NCBI GenBank assembly: GCA_016187125.1
Contig: JACPKF010000007.1
Span: 835 to 64,834 of the forward strand
Length of the DNA: 64,000 nt
Direction of reading: 5' to 3'
Origin: Candidatus Saccharimonadota bacterium
Lineage (GTDB): Bacteria > Patescibacteriota > Saccharimonadia > Saccharimonadales > UBA10212
Positions 4,334-53,837 of the stretch are shown here, in pieces. The notes beneath the pieces were generated by a model that was not told the DNA's origin, ran no database searches, and saw nothing but the letters and a program-made list of their open reading frames with translations. Every line of letters begins with the position of its first letter. Position 1 is the first letter of the stretch. Made by a program: the position numbers and the translations under genes.

Positions 4334-5005
4334 ATGAGTTTAAGCGGGGTGGAAAAGAGATACTTGCAGATGCTGGGACTGCTCAGCGGGCTATGCCTGA
4401 GCTTATTTAGCCTTAGGCTGCTGGCAACGGGTGTGTCGCGCTACTGGTTTGTACCGGAAAACTTGCTGCTGGCCTGGTTGGCACTAATTTTTGGCTGGCT
4501 TTTGATGAGGCAGCTGGACCGTAGCGGTTGGCGCAACTGGCGGGCTCTTGTTTTAACTGGGTTTTGGCTACTATTCTTACCGAATGCTTGGTACGTCATG
4601 ACCGATTTTATCCATGTCTTTGACAGCGGGGAGATAAGCTATATTTATGATATTGCCATGATCAGCACGCTGACACTAACCGGTTTTTTGCTGGGCTTTA
4701 CCAGTTTATTTATGGTACATCGACAAATGCTCAGGCGTATGGGCTATTTATCGGGCTTTGTGGTGATAGAAATAGTCATATTGCTGGCCAGCTTTGCTAT
4801 TTATCTAGGCCGCGATCTCCGCTGGAACACCTGGGATATCCTAACTAACCCCAGCGGCTTGATCTTAAGCATTACCGACCGGCTGATAAATCCCTTTGGT
4901 TTTCCGCGAGCGGTGAACGTTACGGCCATTTTCTTTGTAGTTATCAGTATTATGTACCTAGCTATCTGGCTGTTCCTTAAGCCAGTCGCAACCAGAAAGA
5001 CCTAA
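4334..5005 (+). CDS. polytopic membrane protein, DUF1361-like
   Basis: Multiple hydrophobic helices. The LFLPNAWYVMTDFIHV motif resembles the DUF1361 PNAPY..TD..H motif. Confidence 0.6.
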   Translation: MSLSGVEKRYLQMLGLLSGLCLSLFSLRLLATGVSRYWFVPENLLLAWLALIFGWLLMRQLDRSGWRNWRALVLTGFWLLFLPNAWYVMTDFIHVFDSGEISYIYDIAMISTLTLTGFLLGFTSLFMVHRQMLRRMGYLSGFVVIEIVILLASFAIYLGRDLRWNTWDILTNPSGLILSITDRLINPFGFPRAVNVTAIFFVVISIMYLAIWLFLKPVATRKT

Positions 5006-8282: not shown

Positions 8283-8291
8283 CTTGTTGTA

Positions 8292-8333
8292 AGTACCCCA
8301 CTTTTGGTCCGATCGGACCAAAAGTGGGGTACT
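8292..8333. terminator. bidirectional hairpin terminator, perfect 42-nt palindrome centred on CCGATCGG
   Basis: agtaccccacttttggtccga|tcggaccaaaagtggggtact lies between convergent genes. A sister palindrome is at 25249-25288. Confidence 0.7.
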
Positions 8334-8346
8334 TTAGTATCTTAAT

Positions 8347-12088: not shown

Positions 12089-12173
12089 TCATAGCACAAA
12101 CCCCGCATATTTTCATGGCGTTTCGCAATCCGCCGCAGGCGGACTGCTCCACCCAGAAAATTGGCGGGGCAGG
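12089..12173 (+). repeat. 85-nt hairpin element (family F1) with core cgcaatccgccgNaggcggactgctccaccc
   Basis: Outer inverted repeat ccccgcatattttc / gaaaattggcgggg with an inner hairpin tccgcc/ggcgga. A second copy is at 14733-14808. It sits between the two rpoD 3'-end copies. Confidence 0.75.
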
Positions 12174-12206: not shown

Positions 12207-12776
12207 ATGAGAATTATTGGACTTGCCGGCACCAACGGTTCAGGGAAGGATAGTTTGGGCCAGATTTTGGCTGATGGTTATGGTTACATGTTTGTGTCGG
12301 TAGCTGATTTTTTAAGGGACGAGGCTAAAAAACGCGGCTTGCCGATTGAAAGGGAAGTTTTGCGGACAATCAGCGCCGAGTGGCGCCGTGAGTACGGACT
12401 GGGGGTTTTAGTTGATAGGGCAGTAGAATTATTCCAAAAATCCGGCAAGAACTATAAAGGTTTGGCAATCAGCCCGATGCGTAACGGCGGCGAGGCCGAC
12501 AGATTAAAAGAGCTAGGCGGCAGATTAGTTTGGATAGACGCTGATCCTAAAATTCGTTACGGGCGAATAACCAATCGTGCCCGTAGCACCGAAGATAAGA
12601 AAACTTATGAGCAATTTTTAGCCGAGGAACAAGCCGAAATGCAGCCCAGCGGCGACGAGGCCACCTTGAGCTTGAGCGATGTTAAAAAACGAGCCGACAT
12701 TTTTATTCAAAATGATGTTGAATCTTTGGAAGATTTCCGCCAAATCATCGACCAAAAATTAGCTCAACTTTTGTAA
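12207..12776 (+). CDS. P-loop nucleotide/nucleoside kinase-like protein (dephospho-CoA kinase / dNMP kinase-like)
   Basis: Walker A motif GLAGTNGSGKDS at the N-terminus in a small 189-aa protein. The exact substrate is not inferable. Confidence 0.55.
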   Translation: MRIIGLAGTNGSGKDSLGQILADGYGYMFVSVADFLRDEAKKRGLPIEREVLRTISAEWRREYGLGVLVDRAVELFQKSGKNYKGLAISPMRNGGEADRLKELGGRLVWIDADPKIRYGRITNRARSTEDKKTYEQFLAEEQAEMQPSGDEATLSLSDVKKRADIFIQNDVESLEDFRQIIDQKLAQLL

Positions 12777-12791
12777 TTAACAGATCAAATT

Positions 12792-12829
12792 ATAGGAATA
12801 AATTCAGCGATCGCTGAATTTATTCCTAT
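12792..12829. terminator. perfect 38-nt palindrome centred on GCGATCGC, likely terminator
   Basis: ataggaataaattcagcga|tcgctgaatttattcctat lies 16 nt after the kinase stop. Confidence 0.6.
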
Positions 12830-13979: not shown

Positions 13980-14077
13980 AGCATCTCCTTATGATGTACT
14001 TGGTATCTACAAACCCAGACAAACCTACCCCAGCGAGTAAGAGCAGTTTTTTACGACCTACATAAACCATTCTAATA

Positions 14078-14107
14078 TTCTTAAGAATAATAGAATAGGA
14101 ATAATTA
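14078..14107. repeat. copy of the ttctaatattcttaagaatattagaa palindrome family (imperfect)
   Basis: cattctaatattcttaagaataatagaata lies about 45 nt upstream of ORF 14153. Other copies are at 48498-48523, 48780-48807 and 51421-51452. Confidence 0.7.
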
Positions 14108-14152: not shown

Positions 14153-14692
14153 ATGTCAGAGGATTACACAGGCCCACTTCAGGTAGAAGAAATTCCTTTT
14201 AACCCTTTAAACAAAACGGGTTGGGAAAAAGAAGACGGACAAATAAATGAAGTTGTGATACGAGGAGAGCGAAAGCCAGTTCATCCAACAAATAACCTTC
14301 GAATGATTTTCGGTTTCCATAAAAGGCTAATTAGTGGCGATCGTACCGATCCTTTTATGCAGGTATACAAAGGTGTATTTCAAACAAATAGGCTAGGTGA
14401 AATTTTGGAACACTTTGGTAAAAAGTTTCCTCTTCTATATGCAAGAATGAGTGAGATTAGCGAGCAACATTATCAGAACGCGCAAGATCGGAATAATGCA
14501 TTAGTGAAGCTTGGGCCCAACTCCCCAGAATATGAGACTTTTGTCAAAAAACAAGGGCGCACTGTCGAAGAAGCGGTTGAGCAAGATTACATTTTTTCCA
14601 TGGGCTATGATGGTTTAGCCGAGTCAGCGGTTGAACTTGATCCCGAATATCCAGTAGAAAATCTTCGGGTGCTCACCGGCTATAACGGCTAA
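14153..14692 (+). CDS. hypothetical protein (179 aa)
   Basis: Intact ORF. A TATAAT (14141-14146) lies 6 nt before the ATG. No motif recognised. Confidence 0.45.
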   Translation: MSEDYTGPLQVEEIPFNPLNKTGWEKEDGQINEVVIRGERKPVHPTNNLRMIFGFHKRLISGDRTDPFMQVYKGVFQTNRLGEILEHFGKKFPLLYARMSEISEQHYQNAQDRNNALVKLGPNSPEYETFVKKQGRTVEEAVEQDYIFSMGYDGLAESAVELDPEYPVENLRVLTGYNG

Positions 14693-14732
14693 AATACCTA
14701 CCTACTATCTGTCTGGCGTATAATTTTAAGTA

Positions 14733-14808
14733 ACCCGCAGATCTTTTTGGGGAGTTGCGCAATCCGCCGAAGGCGGACTGCTCCACCCTGAAAAGGTATG
14801 GGGCAAGT
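14733..14808 (+). repeat. second copy of the F1 hairpin element
   Basis: The core gcgcaatccgccgaaggcggactgctccaccc (14757-14788) and flanking inverted repeats align with 12089-12173. Confidence 0.75.
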
Positions 14809-25248: not shown

Positions 25249-25288
25249 TTACCCCAAAAAGTGTCCGATCGGACACTTTTTGGGGTAA
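25249..25288. terminator. bidirectional hairpin terminator, perfect 40-nt palindrome centred on CCGATCGG
   Basis: ttaccccaaaaagtgtccga|tcggacactttttggggtaa lies between convergent genes. Confidence 0.7.
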
Positions 25289-34250: not shown

Positions 34251-36404
34251 ATGGCTGAGACCATAAACCCCTTTGGTAAAAAAGTAATTAGAGTATCAAC
34301 CGATTTTTGCGGCCGCGAGCTGTCACTAGAGGTAAATCGCGTTGGTTTCCGGACTTCAGCGTCTGTGCTGGCCCGTTATGGCGATACGGTGGTGCTGGGC
34401 ACGGCTATGGTTAGCGACGGCCAAGTACAGGGACTGGATTATTTCCCCTTGAGTATCGATTACGAAGAAAAATTTTATGCGGCTGGCAAAATCAGCGGCA
34501 GCCGTTTTATAAAAAGAGAGGGCCGTCCCAGCGATGAAGCCATTTTAATCGGCCGGTTAATCGATCGCCCAATCCGTCCGCTGTGGCCCAAAGGTTATCG
34601 TAACGAAGTTCAAGGTGTTGCAACGGTCCTTAGCATGGACCCGGGCTTCCGCCCCGACATGGTAGCCATGGTAGCCATGAGCGCCGCCTTTATGTTAACC
34701 GGAGCGCCGTTTGAAGGTCCGGTGGCCGGATTACGCATTGGTCTGGTTGATGGTCAACTTACGGCTTTTGCCAGTCCCGAGCAGCTGGATAAAGGCCCAC
34801 TGGACTTAGTAGTTGCTGGCACGAAGGACGGTATTATGATGGTTGAAGCCGGCGCCAATGAAGTTTCCGAGTCCCAAGTCGTTGAAGCTTTGGAATTTGC
34901 CCACAAGATGGTCCAGCCAGCCATTAAATTGCAGAAAGAACTGGTTGAAAAAGTCGGCGTGGTAGCCCGTGAATATGAACTGCTGAAGCCGGATAAGGAA
35001 ATTGTTGATCGGGTTGAGACTTGGCTAGCTGGAAAAATGGGCGCCAACCTTCGTGCCCCCCATCCGGAGCGCGGTGACATAGTTAAAAAGTTGCGCGATG
35101 CTATGTTTGAACATTTTGAAATGAATCCGCCAGCTGGCGGAGGTGATGATTTTGCCGCCCAAAAAGCCGACTTTGACGAAGCTTTTACTATGGCCCTGCA
35201 TCAAGATTTGCGCCAAGCGGTGCTGCATGAAAATATTCGTCCCGATGGCCGCAAGACTACCGAAATTCGGCCACTTTCCAGTGAAGTCGGCTTTTTGCCT
35301 CGAGCCCACGGCTCCAGCTTGTTTACCCGCGGCGTGACTCAGGCTATGAACATCGTTACCTTGGCGCCGCTTTCCTACGCCCAGATGGTAGACACTATGG
35401 AACGCCAGGGCGAACGACGCTATTTGCATCACTACAACGCGCCGGGCTATACGATAGGTGAAGTCCGACGACTGGGCAGCCCCGGCCGGCGTGAAATTGG
35501 CCATGGTTATTTGGCCGAGCGGGCCCTATTGCCGATGCTGCCAGACGAAGCCGATTTCCCATACACTATCCGCTCAGTAACCGAAATTATGAGTCAAAAC
35601 GGCTCAACTTCGATGGCTGCCACATGCTCCAGTACTTTGGCGCTGATGGACGCCGGGGTGCCGCTAAAAGCCCCAGTTAGCGGTATTGCCATGGGACTAA
35701 TGACCAATGGCACAAAGTCGGTAATTTTAAGTGATATTGCTGATGCCGAGGATTTTGCCGGCGATATGGATTTTAAAGTTGCCGGTACCACCAAAGGCAT
35801 CACAGCTCTGCAAATGGACATGAAAGTTCATGGCTTACCGGTAGAAACCTTGGCCAAGACATTGGAACAGGGCAAAGCCGGCCGGGCTGAGATTTTGCAG
35901 CACATGCTTAGCACTCTGCCTGAAGTCCGGCAACAAATGAGCCCCTACGCACCACGAGTTGAAACCATCATAATCAATCCCGAAAAAATCCGTGAAGTTA
36001 TCGGTAAAGGTGGTGAAACGATCAATAAAATCATTGCCGAAACCGGCGCCGAAATTGATATTAAAGATGACGGTATGGTGATGATTGCCAGTCCGGACAA
36101 AAAATCTATCGATGCCGCCCGCCAGTGGATAGAGAGCATCACGGCCGAACCGGAGGTCGGGCGTATTTACGAAAACGTACCAGTAGTTAACGTCATGGAT
36201 TTTGGCGCTTTTGTGCAGATTATGCCCGGTAAAGACGGACTGGTGCATGTCAGCGAAATGAGCGAGCAGCGGGTAGAAAAACCCAGCGACGTCGTTAAAG
36301 AAGGTGATAAAGTGACCGTTAAATTAGTCTCAATTGACGACCGTGGCCGCTTGCAGCTAAGCATGCGAGCGGCACAGCGAGAAATGAAAGAGAAGAAAGA
36401 CTAA
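34251..36404 (+). CDS. pnp: polyribonucleotide nucleotidyltransferase (PNPase)
   Basis: 717 aa with two RNase PH domains, KH (GKGGETINKI) and S1 (GAFVQIMPGKDGLVHVSE). Confidence 0.95.
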   Translation: MAETINPFGKKVIRVSTDFCGRELSLEVNRVGFRTSASVLARYGDTVVLGTAMVSDGQVQGLDYFPLSIDYEEKFYAAGKISGSRFIKREGRPSDEAILIGRLIDRPIRPLWPKGYRNEVQGVATVLSMDPGFRPDMVAMVAMSAAFMLTGAPFEGPVAGLRIGLVDGQLTAFASPEQLDKGPLDLVVAGTKDGIMMVEAGANEVSESQVVEALEFAHKMVQPAIKLQKELVEKVGVVAREYELLKPDKEIVDRVETWLAGKMGANLRAPHPERGDIVKKLRDAMFEHFEMNPPAGGGDDFAAQKADFDEAFTMALHQDLRQAVLHENIRPDGRKTTEIRPLSSEVGFLPRAHGSSLFTRGVTQAMNIVTLAPLSYAQMVDTMERQGERRYLHHYNAPGYTIGEVRRLGSPGRREIGHGYLAERALLPMLPDEADFPYTIRSVTEIMSQNGSTSMAATCSSTLALMDAGVPLKAPVSGIAMGLMTNGTKSVILSDIADAEDFAGDMDFKVAGTTKGITALQMDMKVHGLPVETLAKTLEQGKAGRAEILQHMLSTLPEVRQQMSPYAPRVETIIINPEKIREVIGKGGETINKIIAETGAEIDIKDDGMVMIASPDKKSIDAARQWIESITAEPEVGRIYENVPVVNVMDFGAFVQIMPGKDGLVHVSEMSEQRVEKPSDVVKEGDKVTVKLVSIDDRGRLQLSMRAAQREMKEKKD

Positions 36405-41595: not shown

Positions 41596-41645
41596 TCTCA
41601 ATCCGAGGTCCGAGACTTACTTCATAATAGATAACAGATCAAGAT

Positions 41646-41683
41646 ATGAGAATAGATTCAGCGTTCGCTGAATCTATTCTCAT
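41646..41683. terminator. palindromic hairpin atgagaatagattcagcg-tt-cgctgaatctattctcat
   Basis: An 18-bp stem 50 nt after the last rnj-end copy. It has the same termini as the element at 1561-1661. Confidence 0.6.
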
Positions 41684-46523: not shown

Positions 46524-47042
46524 ATGGCACGAAGTTTTAATCAAGTAGTTTTGATGGGAAATCTCACCCGAGATCCGGATTTGCGGACTACGCCCAGCGG
46601 ACAAAGCGTCTGTAACTTTAGTTTAGCGCTGAACCGAAGCTATAAGGGCCAGGATGGTGAATGGAAAGAAATGACCGACTTTATTGACATTGTGGCTTGG
46701 GGTCCTTTGGGTGAGCGAGTCGCCCAATATTTAACTAAGGGCCGACCGGCGCTGGTTAGCGGCCGGCTGCAAAGCCGCAGCTGGGAGCAAGACGGCCAAA
46801 AGCGTAACAAAGTGGAAGTGGTAGCTCAGGATGTAACATTCTTGGGCAGTCCCAGCGGATCGGCGGCTAGTAGCCTAGCAACGGATGAGCCGACAGCCGC
46901 GGCAAGCGATGATAAAAAAGCCGTTCCGAAAAAGAAAAAAGATGATAAAAATCCGCCAGCTGTCGGAACTAAAGACGAGGAAGATGTTGTGATTGAGGAC
47001 ATCGGCGACGAACCGATTAATTTGGATGATATACCATTCTAA
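46524..47042 (+). CDS. ssb: single-stranded DNA-binding protein
   Basis: OB-fold N-terminus NQVVLMGNLTRDPDLRTTPSGQSV and an acidic tail ending in DDIPF. Confidence 0.92.
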   Translation: MARSFNQVVLMGNLTRDPDLRTTPSGQSVCNFSLALNRSYKGQDGEWKEMTDFIDIVAWGPLGERVAQYLTKGRPALVSGRLQSRSWEQDGQKRNKVEVVAQDVTFLGSPSGSAASSLATDEPTAAASDDKKAVPKKKKDDKNPPAVGTKDEEDVVIEDIGDEPINLDDIPF

Positions 47043-47180
47043 CAATTTTCAATGTCTAATTTTCAATTTTTATTCAATCTTCAAACCACTAATTTACAAA
47101 CGTTTGAGACATTGAGAATTGGATCATTGATTGAAAACTGGTAATTGTAAATTGATAATTCTCGACTGAAAGGAGCATAA
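47043..47180 (+). repeat. ssb-rpsR spacer made of short A/T-rich repeats forming a long hairpin
   Basis: The left arm ttttcaatgtct... pairs with agacattgagaa... Its right part (47121-47160) is the inverted complement of the rpsR-efp spacer (47390-47431). Confidence 0.6.
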
Positions 47181-47384
47181 ATGGCTAAAATATTTAAACA
47201 CCGAACCGACGTAGCTTTTTTTGACTACAAGGATTTTAAAACCTTGCAGCGCTATGTCAACCAATATGGACAGATAGAGCAACGTAAAAAGACTGGTTTA
47301 ACTGAAAGTAAACAACGCCAGCTGGCGCGGGCTATCAAACGTGCTCGCCACATCGCGCTGCTGCCGTTTGTATCTAACGGCTAG
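47181..47384 (+). CDS. rpsR: 30S ribosomal protein S18
   Basis: FFDYKDFKTLQRYVNQYGQIEQRKKTGLTESKQRQLARAIKRARHIALLPF is the S18 pattern. Confidence 0.92.
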   Translation: MAKIFKHRTDVAFFDYKDFKTLQRYVNQYGQIEQRKKTGLTESKQRQLARAIKRARHIALLPFVSNG

Positions 47385-47446
47385 TAAAGCAATTTACAAT
47401 TCTCAATTCACAATTTTCAATCAATGATCGATAACCAATTTTCAAA

Positions 47447-48013
47447 ATGGCTTTAAGTATTACGGAACTCAAGAAGGGGACTATATTTCAGATGGATGGA
47501 ATCCCATACCGAGTTATCGAGTACAGTCAAAAAGTGATGGGGCGGGGCGGTTCGACCGTTAACGTTAAAATTAAAAGTTTGGTTGATGGCAAAGTTCTAG
47601 CCAAAACTTTCCATGGCGGGGAAAAACTAGACTCTGCCGACATAGCTAACCGGCCGGTCCAGTATCTATACGAAAAAGGTGGGCAGTACCATTTCATGGA
47701 CGTTGAAAATTACGACCAGTTCAGTCTGTCGACCGAAGACACGGAGGGCAAAGGGGGATATTTGAAAGAGGGAGATACAGTGACTGCCCAATTTTTTGGC
47801 GGGCGGGTGATAAGCATCGAACTGCCCAAAAACGTGCCGCTAAAAGTTACTTATACTGAAGACGCAGTGAGAGGGGACACCAGCTCGTCTATCACCAAAG
47901 ACGCAACATTGGAAACTGGCGCGACTGTTAAGGTACCAGCTTTTATCAAACAAGGCGATATAATCTCGGTGGATACAACCAATGGCACCTACAAGCAGCG
48001 CGTCAAAAACTAA
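47447..48013 (+). CDS. efp: elongation factor P
   Basis: 188 aa. Contains ELKKGTIFQMDGIPYRVIEY and KVPAFIKQGDII. Confidence 0.95.
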   Translation: MALSITELKKGTIFQMDGIPYRVIEYSQKVMGRGGSTVNVKIKSLVDGKVLAKTFHGGEKLDSADIANRPVQYLYEKGGQYHFMDVENYDQFSLSTEDTEGKGGYLKEGDTVTAQFFGGRVISIELPKNVPLKVTYTEDAVRGDTSSSITKDATLETGATVKVPAFIKQGDIISVDTTNGTYKQRVKN

Positions 48014-48491
48014 CCAGCATCGCTACCTTATTGCCTACTTGTTAGATAGTTTAGAGATTGGAGACAAGTTCCAGCCCTCAGCGCTACATATTACAATTCT
48101 ACCGTGGTTCGCATTGGAAACGGATGAAGGGCCATTTTTGACATGGTTTTATGACCATTTTGACAGAGTGCCGGCTTTTAATGCCGAGGTTGGTACCAGA
48201 AAATTATTTGGCCCTGACAAAGACGTGCCGGTAAGTCTGATGGAGCCAGAGCGTAAGTTTATGCAGCTGCACCTGTTGGCACTGAGCTGGTTTGGCAAAG
48301 TTGGCGCCCGTTGGGCAGAGAAGGATCCCTACGTTGGTAATGATTATATACCCCACGTTGCTCAACGACGGGGTTTTGTTCTCAACGAGGGCGATATTTT
48401 ACCCATATCTTCACTAACCCTGTTTAAAGCCGCCCGTCGCGAAGACCAAATCCGCCGAGTCGCTGCCAAAGCCGTACTTAAACAAGGATAA
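47982..48491 (+). CDS. hypothetical protein, possibly 2H-phosphoesterase-like
   Basis: One clear HxT motif (LHITILPWF) and a weaker second one (PHVAQ). The start is uncertain and overlaps the efp end. Confidence 0.35.
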   Translation: MAPTSSASKTNQHRYLIAYLLDSLEIGDKFQPSALHITILPWFALETDEGPFLTWFYDHFDRVPAFNAEVGTRKLFGPDKDVPVSLMEPERKFMQLHLLALSWFGKVGARWAEKDPYVGNDYIPHVAQRRGFVLNEGDILPISSLTLFKAARREDQIRRVAAKAVLKQG

Positions 48492-48497
48492 CCAATT

Positions 48498-48523
48498 TTC
48501 TAATATTCTTAAGAATATTAGAA
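48498..48523. repeat. perfect 26-nt palindrome ttctaatattctt|aagaatattagaa just upstream of the HTH gene
   Basis: It ends 7 nt before the ATG at 48531 and belongs to the 4-copy palindrome family. Confidence 0.8.
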
Positions 48524-48530
48524 TGTAACT

Positions 48531-48809
48531 ATGAAAACTATCTATTCTTCTCAAGATCTAGCAGATATTTTAAAAGGGGGAGCCAATCATCACAGAATTA
48601 ATATCCTTTTTTTGCTTGATAAGCGAGGCAAGCTAACACTCGACGAAGTTGCTGAGGCATTAAGGGCAAATTATAAAACTATTGCTGTCCACCTTAGCCG
48701 CCTACATAAAAGTGGGCTGGTTACCAAGCGCTATAAAGCTTCAGCTGTCGAGCATGATTTAACACCACGTGCTCGCCATATTCTAAATTTCTTAAGAATA
48801 TTAGAATGA
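48531..48809 (+). CDS. small winged-helix (ArsR-like) DNA-binding protein
   Basis: A 92-aa protein with HHRINILFLLDKRGKLTLDEVAEALRANYKTIAVHLSRLHKSGLV, an HTH pattern. The gene is bracketed by two copies of the palindrome. Confidence 0.6.
   Translation: MKTIYSSQDLADILKGGANHHRINILFLLDKRGKLTLDEVAEALRANYKTIAVHLSRLHKSGLVTKRYKASAVEHDLTPRARHILNFLRILE
48780..48807. repeat. imperfect copy of the palindrome spanning the HTH gene stop and the tlyA start
   Basis: attctaaatttcttaagaatattagaat encodes ILNFLRILE* and contains the tlyA ATG (48806). Confidence 0.75.
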
Positions 48810-49531
48810 CGAGTCTTAAAAGGGTAAGATTGGATCAAAGACTAGTGCAGCTTAGATATACTCCGACGCGTAGCCAGGCAGAAAATTATATTCGACTGGG
48901 TTTTGTAGAAGTCAATGAAAAAGCAGTAACTAAAGCCGGCTTTTTTGTTGCGGATAAAGACAAAATTAGATTAACTAACCCTGAGCATTATGTTAGCCGG
49001 GCCGGTTTAAAACTATCCGATGCTAACAAGTATCTAAAAGTAGACTTTAGCAATAAAGTAGTGCTTGATGTAGGTAGCAGCACGGGTGGTTTTACGGACT
49101 ATGCTCTGCACAAGGGGGCCAAAAAAGTTATTGCCGTGGATGTCGGTACCGACCAACTGCATCTAAAACTTCGTGCAGATGAAAGAATTGAGCTTTACGA
49201 AAAAACCGATATTAGAGACTTTAAGCTAAAATCTGCCCCCGACATTATTATGGTGGATGTCTCGTTTATTTCACTAAATTTGATATTACCTCATTTAGCA
49301 CGATTAAGCAGTTCCAAGACTATAATCATAACCTTACTTAAACCCCAATTTGAGGCTGGAAATGAGCAAATTAACAGGGGTATCATCAAAAATGATAGTA
49401 TACGCCGGACTATCCTAAAGGATTTCGAAAATTGGACAAAAAATTTGTTCAATATTGTCGGCAAAGTTGATAGTAATATTACCGGCTCCAAAGGCAATCG
49501 GGAGCGTTTTTACTTACTTAAAAAACTATAA
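48806..49531 (+). CDS. tlyA: TlyA-family rRNA 2'-O-methyltransferase
   Basis: S4-like N-terminus RLDQRLVQLRYTPTRSQAENYI and FtsJ motif VLDVGSSTGGFTDYALHKGAKKVIAVDVG. Confidence 0.85.
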   Translation: MTSLKRVRLDQRLVQLRYTPTRSQAENYIRLGFVEVNEKAVTKAGFFVADKDKIRLTNPEHYVSRAGLKLSDANKYLKVDFSNKVVLDVGSSTGGFTDYALHKGAKKVIAVDVGTDQLHLKLRADERIELYEKTDIRDFKLKSAPDIIMVDVSFISLNLILPHLARLSSSKTIIITLLKPQFEAGNEQINRGIIKNDSIRRTILKDFENWTKNLFNIVGKVDSNITGSKGNRERFYLLKKL

Positions 49532-49571
49532 GTACTTTTGATAGCCGTTTTTGTTTGTTTAAATTAACGTC

Positions 49572-50759
49572 ATGAGTCAGTCAAAGCAGCAAATAATATT
49601 TTCGCTTATTGGACTACTCCTATTAGTAAGTGGACTTTTCTTTTTAAGAACGTTTCATATTTTCGGAATATTTCCCAAGCAGGATTCTGCTTTAACCGAT
49701 CAACCCAAAACTTCACCACCTACTAAAACTTCTATCATGCAAGCAAGTTATCTAATCTCTGGCGATGTTTTTTGGGGAAGGGGCATTGATTACTTTGCCC
49801 AACAGAGCCCACTTAAATATGATTGGCCGTTTTCTCGCCTTAGTGAGTTTAACCCCGATAAATATGATGGCTGGATCGCCGACATAGAGTGCCCGGTAAC
49901 GGATAAGAAAATTCCATATCAAGTTCAGGTTGATTCATTAATTTTTGCTTGTTCGCCGGATTATTTGCCGGCAGCCAGCAAGTGGTTTGATGTTTTTACA
50001 CTTGCCAATAACCACACCAGCAATACCGGTCCTGACGGATTTGCCGATACCCGCACCAATCTGGCCAAAGCCGGGCGGCAGTTTTTTGGCCATTGGGATT
50101 TGTCCCAAAGACAGGATCTTTGTGAAGTAATAGCGCTTAAGGTAAAAGTTGATAGCCAAGCCAAAAAACTGCCGATTGCCATGTGCGGCTACCACTGGTT
50201 AGCCCGAATGCCCTCGGACGATGAACTGGCTCAAATTAGCCAATACGCGGCTTATTTCCCGGTTTGGGTTTTTCCACACGGGGGAACTGAATATTCCACC
50301 GTCGCCACGCCTGCTCAACAGGAACTGTACCGCAAGATGATTGATCTCGGTGCCGACGCTGTTTTTGCGGATCATCCTCATGTTGTAGAGCCAACCGAGG
50401 CTTACAAAGGCAAGTTAATCGTCTACAACTTGGGCAATCTAATCTTTGATCAGTGGTTTGATCAAGAAGTAACTAAGTCGTTAATTGTTAATGTGGCGCT
50501 GTCAGCTAGCGTGGATAAGAATCTTCAAGCTTATTTGGATATGGGCGAGTCCTGCGCAGTCTTTAAGGACAACTGTCTTGAGACCGCTCAAACTAAGGGA
50601 CTTAAAGCTTATAAGTTAAAATATTCATATAGTATTATTGCCGGTGATAGCTCAAACGCCAGCAGTGATGATCGCCTCAAACACCTCGGTAGCCCCACGG
50701 TTCAGGAGTGGCTGCTTAAGCGGACTAATTGGCCAACAACTCTCTCCGGTCTAAATTGA
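49572..50759 (+). CDS. CapA/PGA_cap-family metallophosphatase-like protein, membrane anchored
   Basis: N-terminal TM helix, LANNHTSNTGPDGFADT and the later FPHGGTEY, ADHPHV motifs typical of CapA. Confidence 0.7.
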   Translation: MSQSKQQIIFSLIGLLLLVSGLFFLRTFHIFGIFPKQDSALTDQPKTSPPTKTSIMQASYLISGDVFWGRGIDYFAQQSPLKYDWPFSRLSEFNPDKYDGWIADIECPVTDKKIPYQVQVDSLIFACSPDYLPAASKWFDVFTLANNHTSNTGPDGFADTRTNLAKAGRQFFGHWDLSQRQDLCEVIALKVKVDSQAKKLPIAMCGYHWLARMPSDDELAQISQYAAYFPVWVFPHGGTEYSTVATPAQQELYRKMIDLGADAVFADHPHVVEPTEAYKGKLIVYNLGNLIFDQWFDQEVTKSLIVNVALSASVDKNLQAYLDMGESCAVFKDNCLETAQTKGLKAYKLKYSYSIIAGDSSNASSDDRLKHLGSPTVQEWLLKRTNWPTTLSGLN

Positions 50760-50884
50760 TCTTAAACTATCGGGAAAATAGCCCGAGATGCGGATTCATT
50801 CCGCACCCGGCGTGATAATCGGGGTCCCCATGAAATTTATTTCATGGGGTATGGTAAGAAACCCCGAAGGGGTGTCTTATAGTT

Positions 50885-52021
50885 CTAGACATTGAAACGG
50901 AATTCGACTACGTCGTCGGGTTGCATAATGTAGTCTTTACCCTCGGTGCGCACCTTGCCAGCGGCCCGGGCGCCCGCTACTGAACCGGCAGTAATTAAAT
51001 CCTGGTAATTTATGACTTGAGCGGCGATGAAACCTCTCTGAAAGTCGGAATGAATAACCCCTGCGGCTTGTGGGGCAGTGGACCCTTTGCTAATTGTCCA
51101 GGCCCGAACTTCTTTTTCGCCGGCGGTCAAGAAACTCTGCAAGCCCAAAACACCATATGCGGCATGAATTAACTGAATTAGCCCACTCTCATTTTGTCCA
51201 TAACTGGCAAGGAGTTCCTGACGGTCAGTTTCGTCAAGTCCCCGTAGCTCACTTTCTAATTTTGCGCAAATAAATACGGCTTTTGCGGGCGCAATTAGAT
51301 CTGTTAATTCCTTTTGCAGGGATTGTCCCTGCAAACTGGCTTCGTCGATGTTAAACACGTAAATTACTGGCTTAGCAGTTAGCAGCTGGAGTTCGTCCAA
51401 GAAAACTGACTGGTCCTTATCCATTCTAATATTCTTAAGAATATTAGAATGGGACAGGGAAGAGTTGGTTTGTAGGTGGGTATTGATAGAATTTAGGGCG
51501 TCGAGTTGAGGTTTTAGTTTTGGGTTGGCTTTAGTTTCTTTTTCCAAACGGGGCAGGCGTTTATCAACCGTTTGCAGGTCGGCAAGTACCAGTTCGGTAT
51601 TTATTATTTCTATATCCTCCGACGCTCCGACCACTAAGTCGGAAGTCGGAGCCCCGATCGAAGCGTCGGGGTTTTTCACGCGGGCTACATTTGGATCATC
51701 AAAGGCTCTTACTACGTGGCAAATGGCATTTGCTTGTCTAATGTGGGATAAAAATTGGTTGCCCAAACCCTCGCCTTGGCTGGCGCCAGCGACTAAACCG
51801 GCAATATCTACAAATGTCACCGTGGCTGGCACGATTTTTTCGGTTTTATAAATCTCGGCCAGTTTTTGCAAGCGCGAGTCGGGAATCGGCACGATGCCGG
51901 TATTTGGCTCAATGGTCGCAAAAGGGTAATTAGCAATCAGGGCATTAGCGTCTGTCAACGCATTAAACAGCGTAGACTTACCGACATTGGGGAGGCCAAT
52001 AATTCCAATACTAAGACTCAA
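50885..52021 (-). CDS. ychF: redox-regulated ATPase YchF
   Basis: GIIGLPNVGKSTLFNALT, the TGS domain and the C-terminal DDVVEFRFNV. It carries a palindrome insert at 51421-51452. Confidence 0.95.
   Translation of the reverse strand: MSLSIGIIGLPNVGKSTLFNALTDANALIANYPFATIEPNTGIVPIPDSRLQKLAEIYKTEKIVPATVTFVDIAGLVAGASQGEGLGNQFLSHIRQANAICHVVRAFDDPNVARVKNPDASIGAPTSDLVVGASEDIEIINTELVLADLQTVDKRLPRLEKETKANPKLKPQLDALNSINTHLQTNSSLSHSNILKNIRMDKDQSVFLDELQLLTAKPVIYVFNIDEASLQGQSLQKELTDLIAPAKAVFICAKLESELRGLDETDRQELLASYGQNESGLIQLIHAAYGVLGLQSFLTAGEKEVRAWTISKGSTAPQAAGVIHSDFQRGFIAAQVINYQDLITAGSVAGARAAGKVRTEGKDYIMQPDDVVEFRFNV
51421..51452. repeat. perfect 32-nt palindrome ccattctaatattctt|aagaatattagaatgg inside the ychF CDS
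   Basis: It is translated on the minus strand as SHSNILKNIRMD in the helical insertion domain and belongs to the same family as the 48.5-kb copies. Confidence 0.85.
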
Positions 52022-52208
52022 AATTGACTCCTATATTCATCTGTTAATCATAGCACGATAGGGAAAACACTTGCAAAAATAGAGAAAACGTGCTATTTTA
52101 TATATGAGAGTTAAGTAATAAACAAAAATGGCAATATCGTATTCACAAGATAAAATAACCCCATCGTTATTATTTGTGCTAATGTAACAACATAGGATAA
52201 ATACAAAA

Positions 52209-53837
52209 ATGTCTACTTTGCCTATAGAAGTGTTGCGCGGAGAAACAAATGGTCTTCGTCTGGGCGATCCGGCTCCTCGTATTCTACCGGGCGAGCGTAT
52301 ACTCTCAATAGTATATCCAGGTATTTCATATCCAAAAGAGCACCCTCCTGCAACTGTCGTTCTTATGCAATTAACGGGAGTAAAAAAGCCTGAGGATATT
52401 GGCAACAATGGTCCCAGCATTGCTGCTACAGCCAGTGCCGAAAATGAGCATATAGAAATCCTGAATAATCTTAAGGCTTTATATGGCAGAGATTCATTAA
52501 TAGTAGGTAATTATGTAAGCGGGATTTTCCCCAAACTGCAGCAAGCAACTGTAATAAGGTTGGCTGAACTTCAAGGCATTGATTATAATTCTCTAGCCGA
52601 AGAAGAGCCTGGCCGTATTATTCATGAAGATCGCCCACCAGACAGTCCCATAGCCGTCCAAGCCACCGAAAAGTCTGGTTGGCAGTGGCCATATTATGGC
52701 AGCATTGACGCCACACCTTTATTCATAAGTGCTACTATTGATTGCACAAAAAACGAAATTCTCTTTCTTAAGAGACGGTTTGAGGGACGCGATGGTAAAA
52801 CCCATACGCTAGAAGAAAGCCTAGAAAATTCAGTTGGCTGGTTGATGCGTAAGCTGGATAGCAATCAGGAGAGTTTACTGGAATTTAAGCCGAGCTTTGA
52901 TGGTAGTATAGAAAATCAGGCTTGGAAGGATTCCTGGGATTCATATTTCCATAAAGATGGCACCATTGCTAATCACAGGCAAGGCATTGCTTCGGTTGAG
53001 GTCCAAGCCTTCGCCTATGACGCTTTATTGGATGTAGTAGAATTTTATAACTCTCGTTTAGAGGCTATTACTGATCCTTCAGAGAAATCGGTATTACAGC
53101 AAAAGATTGAAGGCCTGCAGTTACGAGCTGACAAACTAAAGCGGACAGTAATGGACAAGTTCTGGGTTGAAGATGAGAGGGGTGGTTATTTTGCTCTCGG
53201 CACGGATCGTGATGAAGATGGTAAATTGCGGCCTCTAGAAATCAGAACTTCCAACATGGGCTATTTGCTGGATTCGCGAATGTTAGACAGCAATGATCCG
53301 GAAATTGTTAGGCGGCGTGAGGAAGTTATAAAAACTTTGTTCTCTGAAGAGATGCTGGCTGAAGCTGGTATTCGAACACTTTCAAATCGGGAAGTGCGTT
53401 TTCGATCAGGGGCTTATCATAATGGTAGTGTTTGGCCGCATGATACTTACCGTATAAGCCGCGGTTTGGCTAAATGCGGCTACTACGGGCTAGCCTATGA
53501 TTTAGTTCAACGGATTAAAGGGGTCGTAGAGAAAACAAATATGTACGTAGAATTTGCCCGCGGCGGTGAGTCTGGGGATGAGCCCATAAACCGGCGAATA
53601 GTTGATGTATGGGATGAAAAATTAAGCCGGGAAAATAGAATTGAGGAACCGCCTAAAGAGCCCCAAGCTTGGGATGTTGCCGCAAATGTGGCGATTGACT
53701 ACTTTTACAATTCGTCAAGCCCCAAAAAGGCGTTACCAACACAAGCCACCGATCCAGCAAAGCAATTGTTTGAAGAAGCAATTCTATCTCAAATTCACAG
53801 ATCATATCCCCACCCCGAACGCCTACTAGCGGGTTAG
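52209..53837 (+). CDS. amylo-alpha-1,6-glucosidase / glycogen-debranching-enzyme-like (GDE_C) protein
   Basis: YGSIDATPLFI, ENQAWKDSWDS, GIASVEVQAFAYDAL and AYHNGSVWPHDT are typical of the six-hairpin GDE_C family. The N-terminal start is uncertain. Confidence 0.7.
   Translation: MSTLPIEVLRGETNGLRLGDPAPRILPGERILSIVYPGISYPKEHPPATVVLMQLTGVKKPEDIGNNGPSIAATASAENEHIEILNNLKALYGRDSLIVGNYVSGIFPKLQQATVIRLAELQGIDYNSLAEEEPGRIIHEDRPPDSPIAVQATEKSGWQWPYYGSIDATPLFISATIDCTKNEILFLKRRFEGRDGKTHTLEESLENSVGWLMRKLDSNQESLLEFKPSFDGSIENQAWKDSWDSYFHKDGTIANHRQGIASVEVQAFAYDALLDVVEFYNSRLEAITDPSEKSVLQQKIEGLQLRADKLKRTVMDKFWVEDERGGYFALGTDRDEDGKLRPLEIRTSNMGYLLDSRMLDSNDPEIVRRREEVIKTLFSEEMLAEAGIRTLSNREVRFRSGAYHNGSVWPHDTYRISRGLAKCGYYGLAYDLVQRIKGVVEKTNMYVEFARGGESGDEPINRRIVDVWDEKLSRENRIEEPPKEPQAWDVAANVAIDYFYNSSSPKKALPTQATDPAKQLFEEAILSQIHRSYPHPERLLAG

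Follow-up and report, generated by a model that had tools for sequence, protein, structure and literature searches.

A perfect 32-nt palindrome, CCATTCTAATATTCTTAAGAATATTAGAATGG, lies in frame within the ychF gene of a Candidatus Saccharimonadota bacterium, in the 64,000-nt stretch of DNA analysed here (positions 835 to 64,834 of contig JACPKF010000007.1; hereafter the window). We conclude that it is one dispersed ("solo") copy of a Patescibacteria-wide palindromic element with the core ATTCYMAWRTTCTYRAGAAYWTKRGAAT. With slightly better than even confidence, our best explanation from comparative sequence analysis is that the element is a mobile, hairpin-prone predicted binding site of a winged helix-turn-helix (wHTH) protein, whose gene is bracketed by two further copies in a cassette 2.6 kb from the ychF palindrome. 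The element forms a family, two members of which enclose the wHTH gene; it is constrained at the DNA level, its arms covary, it has been inserted in frame into protein-coding genes and it is conserved in ychF. Protein binding, regulation, the mode of movement and an effect on ychF expression are proposed on that basis.

The host open reading frame (ORF) encodes a protein of 378 aa that we identified as YchF from its Pfam domains (MMR_HSR1 and YchF-GTPase_C), from a 100% identical protein, named YchF, in a Candidatus Saccharibacteria bacterium and from its match to Haemophilus influenzae YchF (1jal, 5.9e-102). The palindrome consists of a 28-nt core (51423-51450) plus one CC/GG flank pair; it is translated from the minus strand as SHSNILKNIRMD, in the protein context ...SLSHSNILKNIRMDKD..., and reads HSNILKNIRM in what we term frame b of the element. 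An initial inspection of the window from its letters alone (the sequence-only reading) had described a perfect 32-nt palindrome in frame inside ychF, in the variable helical domain, and both points were borne out, the site being the variable loop that ends the YchF helical domain and an insertion relative to most orthologues. The same reading had called the gene essential; ychF is not essential in Escherichia coli. A single strand of the palindrome forms a stem of 14 bp capped by a 4-nt loop, with a folding energy of −26.1 kcal/mol as RNA (z = −6.7) and −11.9 kcal/mol as DNA (z = −5.9).

Searches of the window for the 32-mer, for a 24-mer and for the degenerate skeleton TTCN5TTCN4GAAN5GAA returned 2, 4 and 4 matches, respectively, against 0.00 expected in dinucleotide-preserving shuffles of the window. 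Three further copies had been proposed at 14078, 48498 and 48780; all three are real and belong to the same family, but the coordinates were approximate and the copies are imperfect (30/32, 27/28 and 26/28). Chance or convergence at the protein level was ruled out as the origin, since shuffles gave no such sites and synonymous positions are fixed. An assembly artefact was also ruled out, because the element recurs, in frame, in many independent assemblies.

The loop that holds the palindrome is mostly 30-31 aa long in the 120 nearest YchF proteins and 39 aa long in the window. A 39-aa loop with an xSNILKNIRx-type peptide at the same codon was found in 10/120 orthologues, and a 35-aa '..EEWR(I/M)K..' loop in 9/120. 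Relative to the nearest orthologues the ychF element adds 24 nt, or 8 codons; relative to H. influenzae YchF it adds 5-6 residues, and HMMER aligns the palindrome peptide with GMIRSVGLDKEE of that protein, an alignment apparently forced by the flanking homology. A fixed 32-nt unit, not a multiple of three, had been thought to require that the flanks adapt. The unit is instead the 28-nt core with variable complementary flanks, and the net gain is 24 nt. The flanks need not have adapted, since the element can be read through on both strands in two frames (ILIFLRILE and HSNILKNIRM) and is closed only in the third, by three stops.

All seven fetched orthologous loci that encode the peptide were found to have the palindrome in their DNA at the same codon, in some cases partly decayed. 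The element recurs at this codon in several Saccharibacteria lineages. With the window included, eight of eight peptide-bearing loci keep a palindrome or a decayed one and palindrome-free orthologues lack the peptide, so that the same peptide without a palindrome was not encountered. Locus L106 has the identical 32-mer, grown to a 48-nt perfect palindrome by the addition of CCCCTCATCC and GGATGAGGGG on either side of the core. The palindrome is also perfect in L022, where the centre is changed from TA to CG, and in L020, with two swapped pairs; L023 has intact 12-nt arms with three swapped pairs and L107 one swapped pair, while L021 has 2 mismatches and L019 is partly decayed with two pairs lost. 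The TTC/GAA skeleton was kept in all eight ychF sites examined as DNA. Between the window and L106 the palindrome codons are identical at 30/30 positions, compared with 66.9% for the rest of ychF (42% at third positions), and 28/30 and 27/30 palindrome bases are shared with L022 and L021, respectively, at ~64% gene identity. In L104, which has the 'EEW' loop type, the DNA reads GAAGAATGGAGAATG, to judge from its sequence a probable relic of the right arm of the element. Carriers are not each other's closest kin: P0074 is 84% identical to non-carriers and at most 77% to carriers, and P0022 78% and at most 72%, so either the same codon has been hit repeatedly or an old insertion has been lost many times. 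We also noted a second lineage-specific insert in the YchF clade of the window, KNPDASIGAPTSDLVVGAS, in the G domain (window 51640-51700, residues ~113-132); P0034 YchF has an insert of ~50 aa at the same place (alignment columns 115-175), and from these sequences the site appears to be another indel hotspot of YchF.

The 92-aa wHTH protein matched Pfam HTH_5 (3.4e-08), and a profile search against the PDB aligned it over its full length with HlyU (1.8e-10), with further matches to CadC, PagR, YgaV and AspA. An AlphaFold2 (AF2) model (predicted local distance difference test, pLDDT, 83) comprises alpha1-alpha4, a beta wing and alpha5, and its best Foldseek matches were CadC, HlyU, AspA, SqrR and BigR; the model thus predicts a complete ArsR/SmtB fold. 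The protein contains no cysteine, which makes a thiol switch of the HlyU/BigR type unlikely. Members of the ArsR/SmtB family typically autoregulate via inverted repeats of about 26-28 bp. Homologues with 44-47% identity adjoin the palindrome in 3/18 genome loci, and a metagenome scan with the wHTH profile gave at least 80 loci that reduce to 61 distinct genes (43-85% identity), in which a site was called with at most 6 mismatches, either within 140 nt upstream of the start or at the 3′ end. A palindrome was present upstream of 50/61 of these genes, mostly −2 to 64 nt from the start, and at the 3′ end in a fixed register in 54/61; 45/61 had both, and shuffled loci had none. The link to the adjacent HTH gene that the sequence-only reading had suggested is strongly backed by this distribution. 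Contigs at the level of strains with an identical wHTH protein showed the same context and no polymorphism.

In its fixed register the 3′ copy encodes the C-terminal I-L-K-F-L-R-(I/T/M)-L-E and the stop codon; a few lineages read it in another frame (ending TFSYS or TFQHS before the stop), and the palindrome is still there. Codon choice was strongly skewed at this copy in 52 distinct genes relative to the remainder of the same genes: phenylalanine was TTC in 52/52 (32% elsewhere), arginine AGA in 51/51 (24%), the two leucines TTR in 51/52 and 50/52 (38%), isoleucine ATA in 28/28 (24%) and glutamate GAA in 51/52 (62%). This skew indicates that constraint acts on the DNA, beyond the peptide alone. 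Helix alpha5 of the wHTH protein and one copy of the element are the same DNA.

Within a conserved rpsR-efp-(ligase-like)-tlyA...ychF neighbourhood the cassette is polymorphic for presence or absence, the slot between efp and tlyA being filled or empty depending on the genome (L019, L020, L023 and L107). At loci without the cassette the stop of the ligase-like gene overlaps the tlyA start (TAATG), and no remnant palindrome was found in the empty efp-tlyA slots. The most drifted ychF copies (L019, L020 and L023) are those of the three loci without a cassette in this slot, those of L020 and L023 still being fully paired, and in L107 one C-G variant pair is common to the ychF site and both cassette sites. 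Downstream neighbours of the cassette, most of which were named from N-terminal sequences rather than by Pfam, were tlyA (7 loci), rsmI (3), a spoU-type methyltransferase gene (2), tgt (2), trpS (1) and ychF (1); we give these RNA-modification and translation neighbours little weight because genomes of the candidate phyla radiation (CPR) are rich in such genes. In the window, a 169-aa protein (47982-48491) is encoded between efp and the cassette; its counterpart is 2′-5′ RNA ligase-like by Pfam in L023 and L107, and a direct Pfam scan of the window protein gave no match.

The skeleton of the element, TTC-N5-TTC-N4-GAA-N5-GAA, has its triplets at 2-4 and 10-12 bases on either side of the centre. 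In a set of 52 distinct upstream sites, five of the six TTC/GAA paired positions were kept at 52/52 and the sixth at 50/52, while the two central bases were mostly unpaired (TTAA, TTGA, TCAA). Within N5, position 5 was A-T in 44 sites and G-C in 8, with none unpaired, and position 6 was T-A in 20, A-T in 17, C-G in 7 and unpaired in 8. Pairing continued past the 28-mer without sequence conservation, at 48, 47, 34, 30, 27, 24 and 25 of the 52 sites over the next seven positions, before dropping to chance (12-15/52). In a formal covariation analysis of 50 sites, 87.6% of cells were paired compared with 74.3% in shuffles, a level reached by 0/500 shuffles; there were 182 double-change cells against 78.5 shuffled, the covariation score was 0.396 against 0.167, and slid controls paired at 41-49%. 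Pairing between the arms of the element is maintained. A hand tally of flank pairs d14-d20 on the wHTH sense strand gave 36 G:T and 11 A:C mismatches, and a Shine-Dalgarno (SD)-like motif on the 3′ flank was present in 23/52 cassettes, paired with a C-rich 5′ flank in 15 of them (e.g. TTTCCTCT...AGAGGAAATG). The G:T excess and the paired SD-like motifs hint at a role at the level of the transcript.

The distribution of the element was determined by scanning for the exact 28-nt core in one genome per species, and counts from the genome and metagenome collections are those among the matches listed. The exact 28-mer occurs at at least 18 loci in at least 14 assemblies, 13 of those 14 being Patescibacteria (Saccharibacteria, Yanofskybacteria, Paceibacterota, Parcubacteria, Zambryskiibacteriota, Levyibacteriota and unclassified Patescibacteria). 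A total of 157 distinct skeleton sites were found in 745 kb of fetched loci, and none in 421 kb of shuffled wHTH loci. Flanks beyond the 28-mer vary from site to site yet remain mutually complementary (AAACT...AGTTT, CCTTCAACCC...GGGTTGAAG, TTATTAC...GTAATAA). The 64-kb window contains 4 copies, and in the wHTH loci solo copies occur about once per 45 kb. Viral contigs gave 0 matches to an exact 26-mer and 13 to the degenerate skeleton, none of the latter with complementary N5 arms or near a wHTH homologue, and the plasmid and phage collections gave only weak AT-rich chance matches. Full-text literature searches returned no occurrence of palindrome substrings, and keyword searches (CPR, Saccharibacteria, palindrome, ArsR, regulon) no description of such an element, which has apparently not been described before.

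The only match outside Patescibacteria among the matches listed was a single exact 28-mer (L007, 1146-1173) in a 198-kb contig that bears the label Clostridium butyricum and whose fetched 8 kb have 30% G+C. This copy is intergenic and adjoins a response-regulator gene, no wHTH homologue lies within 8 kb of it, and it may reflect horizontal transfer or mis-binning. Locus L091 has identical variant palindromes at 4808 and 5395, with identical 10-nt flanks, 587 nt apart in a larger local duplication.

Genes other than ychF also carry the element in frame, and all of these copies read as xSNILKNxRx. They include rnhB (RNase HII), at differing positions in L013 and L016, a YfhO-like membrane protein gene in L014, a GT2 glycosyltransferase gene in L099, in which the copy is a 38-nt perfect palindrome, and an ORF common to L046 and L058. 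Intergenic copies occur in very short gaps, between obg and prmC (L002 and L006) and ahead of tsaC, ruvX and a nucleotidyltransferase gene; L001 has the order palindrome-tsaC-palindrome-gene-palindrome-wHTH-palindrome. In L016, rnhB (1692-2576) contains two canonical copies, each a different variant, at 2156 and 2210 (54 nt apart), and a GC-rich match to the skeleton at 1700 lies in an N-terminal extension that duplicates the KYVIGID motif.

Under the explanation that we favour, the four TTC/GAA triplets would be contacted by dimers of the wHTH protein, which would control its own gene through the upstream copy. The 3′ and solo copies, including that in ychF, would be further binding sites (roadblocks or auxiliary operators), although copies outside the cassette could also be functionless. 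The element would have spread by insertion, coding regions included, and would survive within genes because two of its three frames are stop-free on either strand and encode short amphipathic helices. Its arms would stay complementary because it also exists as a hairpin, perhaps in the transcript, where the extended stem would pair with the SD sequence of the wHTH gene in ~30% of cassettes, and perhaps in single-stranded DNA (ssDNA) at replication, where arm-to-arm template switching would copy changes from one arm to the other and lengthen the stem. We sought covariation between the recognition helix, NFKT(A/I)SEH(I/V)RRL, and the N5 operator variants and found none, and the constancy of this helix makes the invariant triplets plausible protein contacts. 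The arrangement resembles the operators of ArsR/SmtB proteins (HlyU, BigR, CzrA and SmtB, with repeats of the 12-2-12 type) in the full alpha1-alpha5 fold and in the palindrome of ~28 bp directly upstream. It differs from them in lacking evident metal- or thiol-sensing residues (no Cys), in the second site within the 3′ codons of the gene, in perfect or covarying palindromes that reach into the flanks, and in copies inserted in unrelated coding regions.

Several observations weigh against this explanation. Locus L105 has the cassette but no ychF palindrome; the system can therefore do without the ychF site. The triplet centres are 8, 7 and 8 bp apart, a spacing not obviously suited to one wHTH dimer in successive major grooves. 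Insertion is not how transcription-factor sites normally arise. Copy number is also uneven between genomes: one contig (L001, L010 and L016) has 8 sites in 24 kb, compared with 1-3 per 21 kb elsewhere, which looks like a proliferating repeat. The constant recognition helix also means that covariation of N5 and the flanks needs a second cause, which is likely to be pairing of the arms in a hairpin, maintained by selection or by arm-to-arm template switching.

The strongest of the alternatives, although we regard it as somewhat unlikely, takes the hairpin as the whole of the matter: a structure in RNA or ssDNA, like repetitive extragenic palindromic (REP) sequences, would punctuate operons by acting on mRNA processing or stability, by coupling translation or by masking ribosome-binding sites, the wHTH gene would be no more than its most frequent carrier, with a product that does not bind it, and the ychF copy would have little or no role. 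Covariation over 20 pairs, including positions without sequence conservation, and the loop-like centre fit such a structure, as do the sense-strand bias of G:T over A:C and the 15 cassettes with paired SD-like motifs; the ATG of tlyA within the 3′ arm of the copy at 48780, the sites in very short gaps between co-directional genes (L001, L002 and L006) and the persistence of ychF pairing without the cassette (L020 and L023) point the same way. However, pure structure would not fix four TTC/GAA triplets, or an exact 28-mer, over several lineages, and it leaves unexplained the near-obligatory tie to one protein family at both ends of its gene; moreover, the G:T excess could stem from strand-biased C-to-T mutation, and no Rfam family matches. 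In the architecture of REP-associated tyrosine transposases (RAYTs), the gene for an HUH tyrosine transposase is flanked by REP copies, and the hairpin is central to REP biology. The element shares with this architecture a dispersed palindrome of 20-40 nt and an associated gene flanked by two copies. In contrast to the described REP classes (PMC3733652), it has no GTAG/CGTC head (the core starts with ATTC) and its copies are also intragenic. It is set apart further by its low copy number (~1 per 10-45 kb in the loci seen), by a flanked gene that encodes a 92-aa ArsR-type wHTH protein instead of an HUH tyrosine transposase, and by a 3′ copy that itself codes for part of the associated protein.

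A purely selfish miniature insertion, with a functionless site in ychF and symmetry kept by arm-to-arm correction or conversion, is in our view clearly unlikely. Such an insertion would account for independent in-frame copies in unrelated genes, always in an open frame, for copy numbers that vary widely by genome, for the polyphyly of insertion-type YchF (P0074 and P0022), for the probable half-element relic in L104, and for palindrome identity that runs opposite to gene relatedness. On the other hand, retention of the skeleton in 8/8 ychF sites and of 26-30/30 bases at ~65% gene identity argues for selection or active homogenisation. Neither a transposase nor a target-site duplication was found, and close strains showed no presence/absence polymorphism. 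The nearest precedent is the Rickettsia palindromic element (RPE). RPEs are about 100-150 bp long, are restricted to Rickettsia and are selfish DNA in frame in protein genes; we know of no dedicated protein associated with them. Like RPEs, the element is a dispersed palindromic repeat that occurs both in frame in protein genes and between genes, encodes a tolerated peptide and is retained for long periods in orthologues; unlike them, it is 28-48 bp long, is found in several lineages of Patescibacteria, has an invariant TTC/GAA skeleton and brackets a wHTH gene. As the defining features of each fail, we do not regard the element as an RPE, a REP/RAYT system or a plain operator.

It is very improbable that the element is a site-specific recombination site of the dif/pdif or attC kind, with the 28-mer as an 11-6-11 arrangement and the bracketed genes exchangeable. 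The length of 28 bp and the 11-6-11 reading follow from the sequence itself, two copies bracket genes (the wHTH gene everywhere, tsaC in L001), and the efp-tlyA slot holds the cassette in some genomes but not in others; pdif modules and integron attC sites likewise bracket single genes with short (quasi-)palindromes, and attC is conserved in structure more than in sequence. The crossover region of a recombination site is expected to be variable, the reverse of what we found: conservation in the central 6 bp is among the highest of the site, with variation at the middle two alone. Empty slots are also free of palindromes, no recombinase gene was seen beside the cassettes, and long-conserved in-frame intragenic copies would be unexpected; the recombination-hotspot role raised by the sequence-only reading gained no support. 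A centromere-like or nucleoid-organising site, on which the wHTH protein would nucleate at scattered palindromes as in parS/ParB or the AspA centromere of pNOB8, is the least probable reading. In its favour, the short palindrome is common to several distant CPR lineages, copies lie in or beside the gene for the binding protein and inside others, and the best sequence and structure matches include AspA, a centromere-binding wHTH protein. Against it, the cassettes have no gene for a ParA-type ATPase or another partner beside them, the site is longer and hairpin-prone, and HlyU- and CadC-type regulators match as well or better.

Several other classes of element were considered and dropped. A miniature inverted-repeat transposable element was ruled out because the flanks are inverted-complementary and not direct repeats, and no insertion sequence relative was seen; a DNA uptake sequence, of which there are hundreds to thousands of copies per genome, was ruled out by the 4 copies per 64 kb. 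A promoter and terminator scan of 47000-52500 found nothing at the palindromes: a terminator-like site was reported neither at 51421 nor at the remaining copies in that range, and as the stem of the element has only 25% G+C an intrinsic terminator was also excluded. The outer TAGAAT was rejected as a −10 box because its second base varies (TGGAAT) and its distance from the start codon ranges from −2 to 64 nt. Rfam searches gave no matching family, only spurious microRNA-hairpin matches, both near the site at a permissive threshold and over the whole window at the gathering threshold. No tRNA or tmRNA genes were found in the window.

The features of the window are listed in Table 1. The solo intergenic copy, whose 28-nt core (14069-14096) has 1 mismatch, lies 88 nt past a prephenate-dehydratase gene and 54 nt ahead of ORF 14153-14692. 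The copy upstream of the wHTH gene ends 6 nt before its ATG and is a candidate operator and 5′ hairpin. The 3′ copy encodes the last codons of the gene (ILNFLRILE, in helix alpha5, "frame a") together with the stop, and its 3′ arm is overlapped by the ATG of the tlyA-like gene.

Table 1. Copies of the palindromic element and associated genes in the window.
Feature	Position	Strand	Evidence
ychF palindrome, 32 nt	51421..51452	-	sequence, shuffles, translation, folding, orthologous copies in other Saccharibacteria
ychF (Obg-family ATPase), host gene of the in-frame copy	50885..52021	-	Pfam, protein match, alignment with 1jal and 8kie
Solo intergenic copy, 30/32, same CC/GG flank as the ychF copy	14067..14098	.	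repeat and palindrome scans
Copy upstream of the wHTH gene, 27/28	48497..48524	.	sequence; position filled in 50/61 distinct homologous cassettes
92-aa ArsR/SmtB-family winged-helix gene (HlyU-like), bracketed by two copies	48531..48809	+	Pfam HTH_5, PDB profiles, AF2, Foldseek
3′ copy at the end of the wHTH gene, 26/28	48780..48807	.	sequence; fixed register in 54/61 cassettes; codon-choice test
tlyA-like rRNA methyltransferase gene (S4 + FtsJ domains)	48806..49531	+	Pfam; recurrent downstream neighbour of the cassette

The window contains other repeats as well. A perfect 44-nt palindrome (8291-8334) and a perfect 40-nt palindrome (25249-25288) share TACCCCA...TCCGATCGGA...TGGGGTA; both sit between convergent gene ends and are candidate bidirectional terminators or another repeat family. 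GC-rich hairpins TCCGCCnnnnGGCGGA recur at 1768-1792, 35117-35141, 46943-46967, 12098-12171 and 14732-14805, two of them within a 74-nt repeat (77% identity). They appear to be the ordinary terminators of this genome and differ from the AT-rich element. A repeat with a hairpin of its own, TAACAGATCAA..GAATAnATTCAGCG|nTCGCTGAATnTATTC, is present in three copies (1535-1574, 12770-12825 and 41624-41679).

To our knowledge, almost nothing is known of gene regulation or repeat dynamics in CPR bacteria (Patescibacteria), and a motif common to several lineages with an obvious candidate reader protein offers a directly testable entry point. The in-frame copies are a clean new case of non-coding or selfish DNA residing within conserved protein genes, and the compensatory changes in ychF, together with a 48-nt perfect palindrome within an ORF, provide unusually clear evidence of DNA or RNA symmetry upheld against coding constraint. 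In the cassette, one stretch of DNA is both the C-terminal helix and a candidate operator of the same gene. In practice, the motif flags lineage-specific protein inserts and accounts for odd peptides such as xSNILKNIRx in annotations. More tentatively, the element and its protein may form a new repeat-plus-reader class, in which a palindrome of ~30 bp and a dedicated ArsR-type protein, whose last helix the palindrome encodes, would have proliferated into conserved reading frames, stayed uniform by hairpin-mediated correction or conversion, and come to double as genome-wide "punctuation" sites for protein binding and RNA hairpins, many of them adjoining genes for translation and RNA modification (tlyA, rsmI, spoU-type, tgt, tsaC, prmC, obg and ychF). 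If true, this would establish a new class of system and might give CPR bacteria their first defined global regulon.

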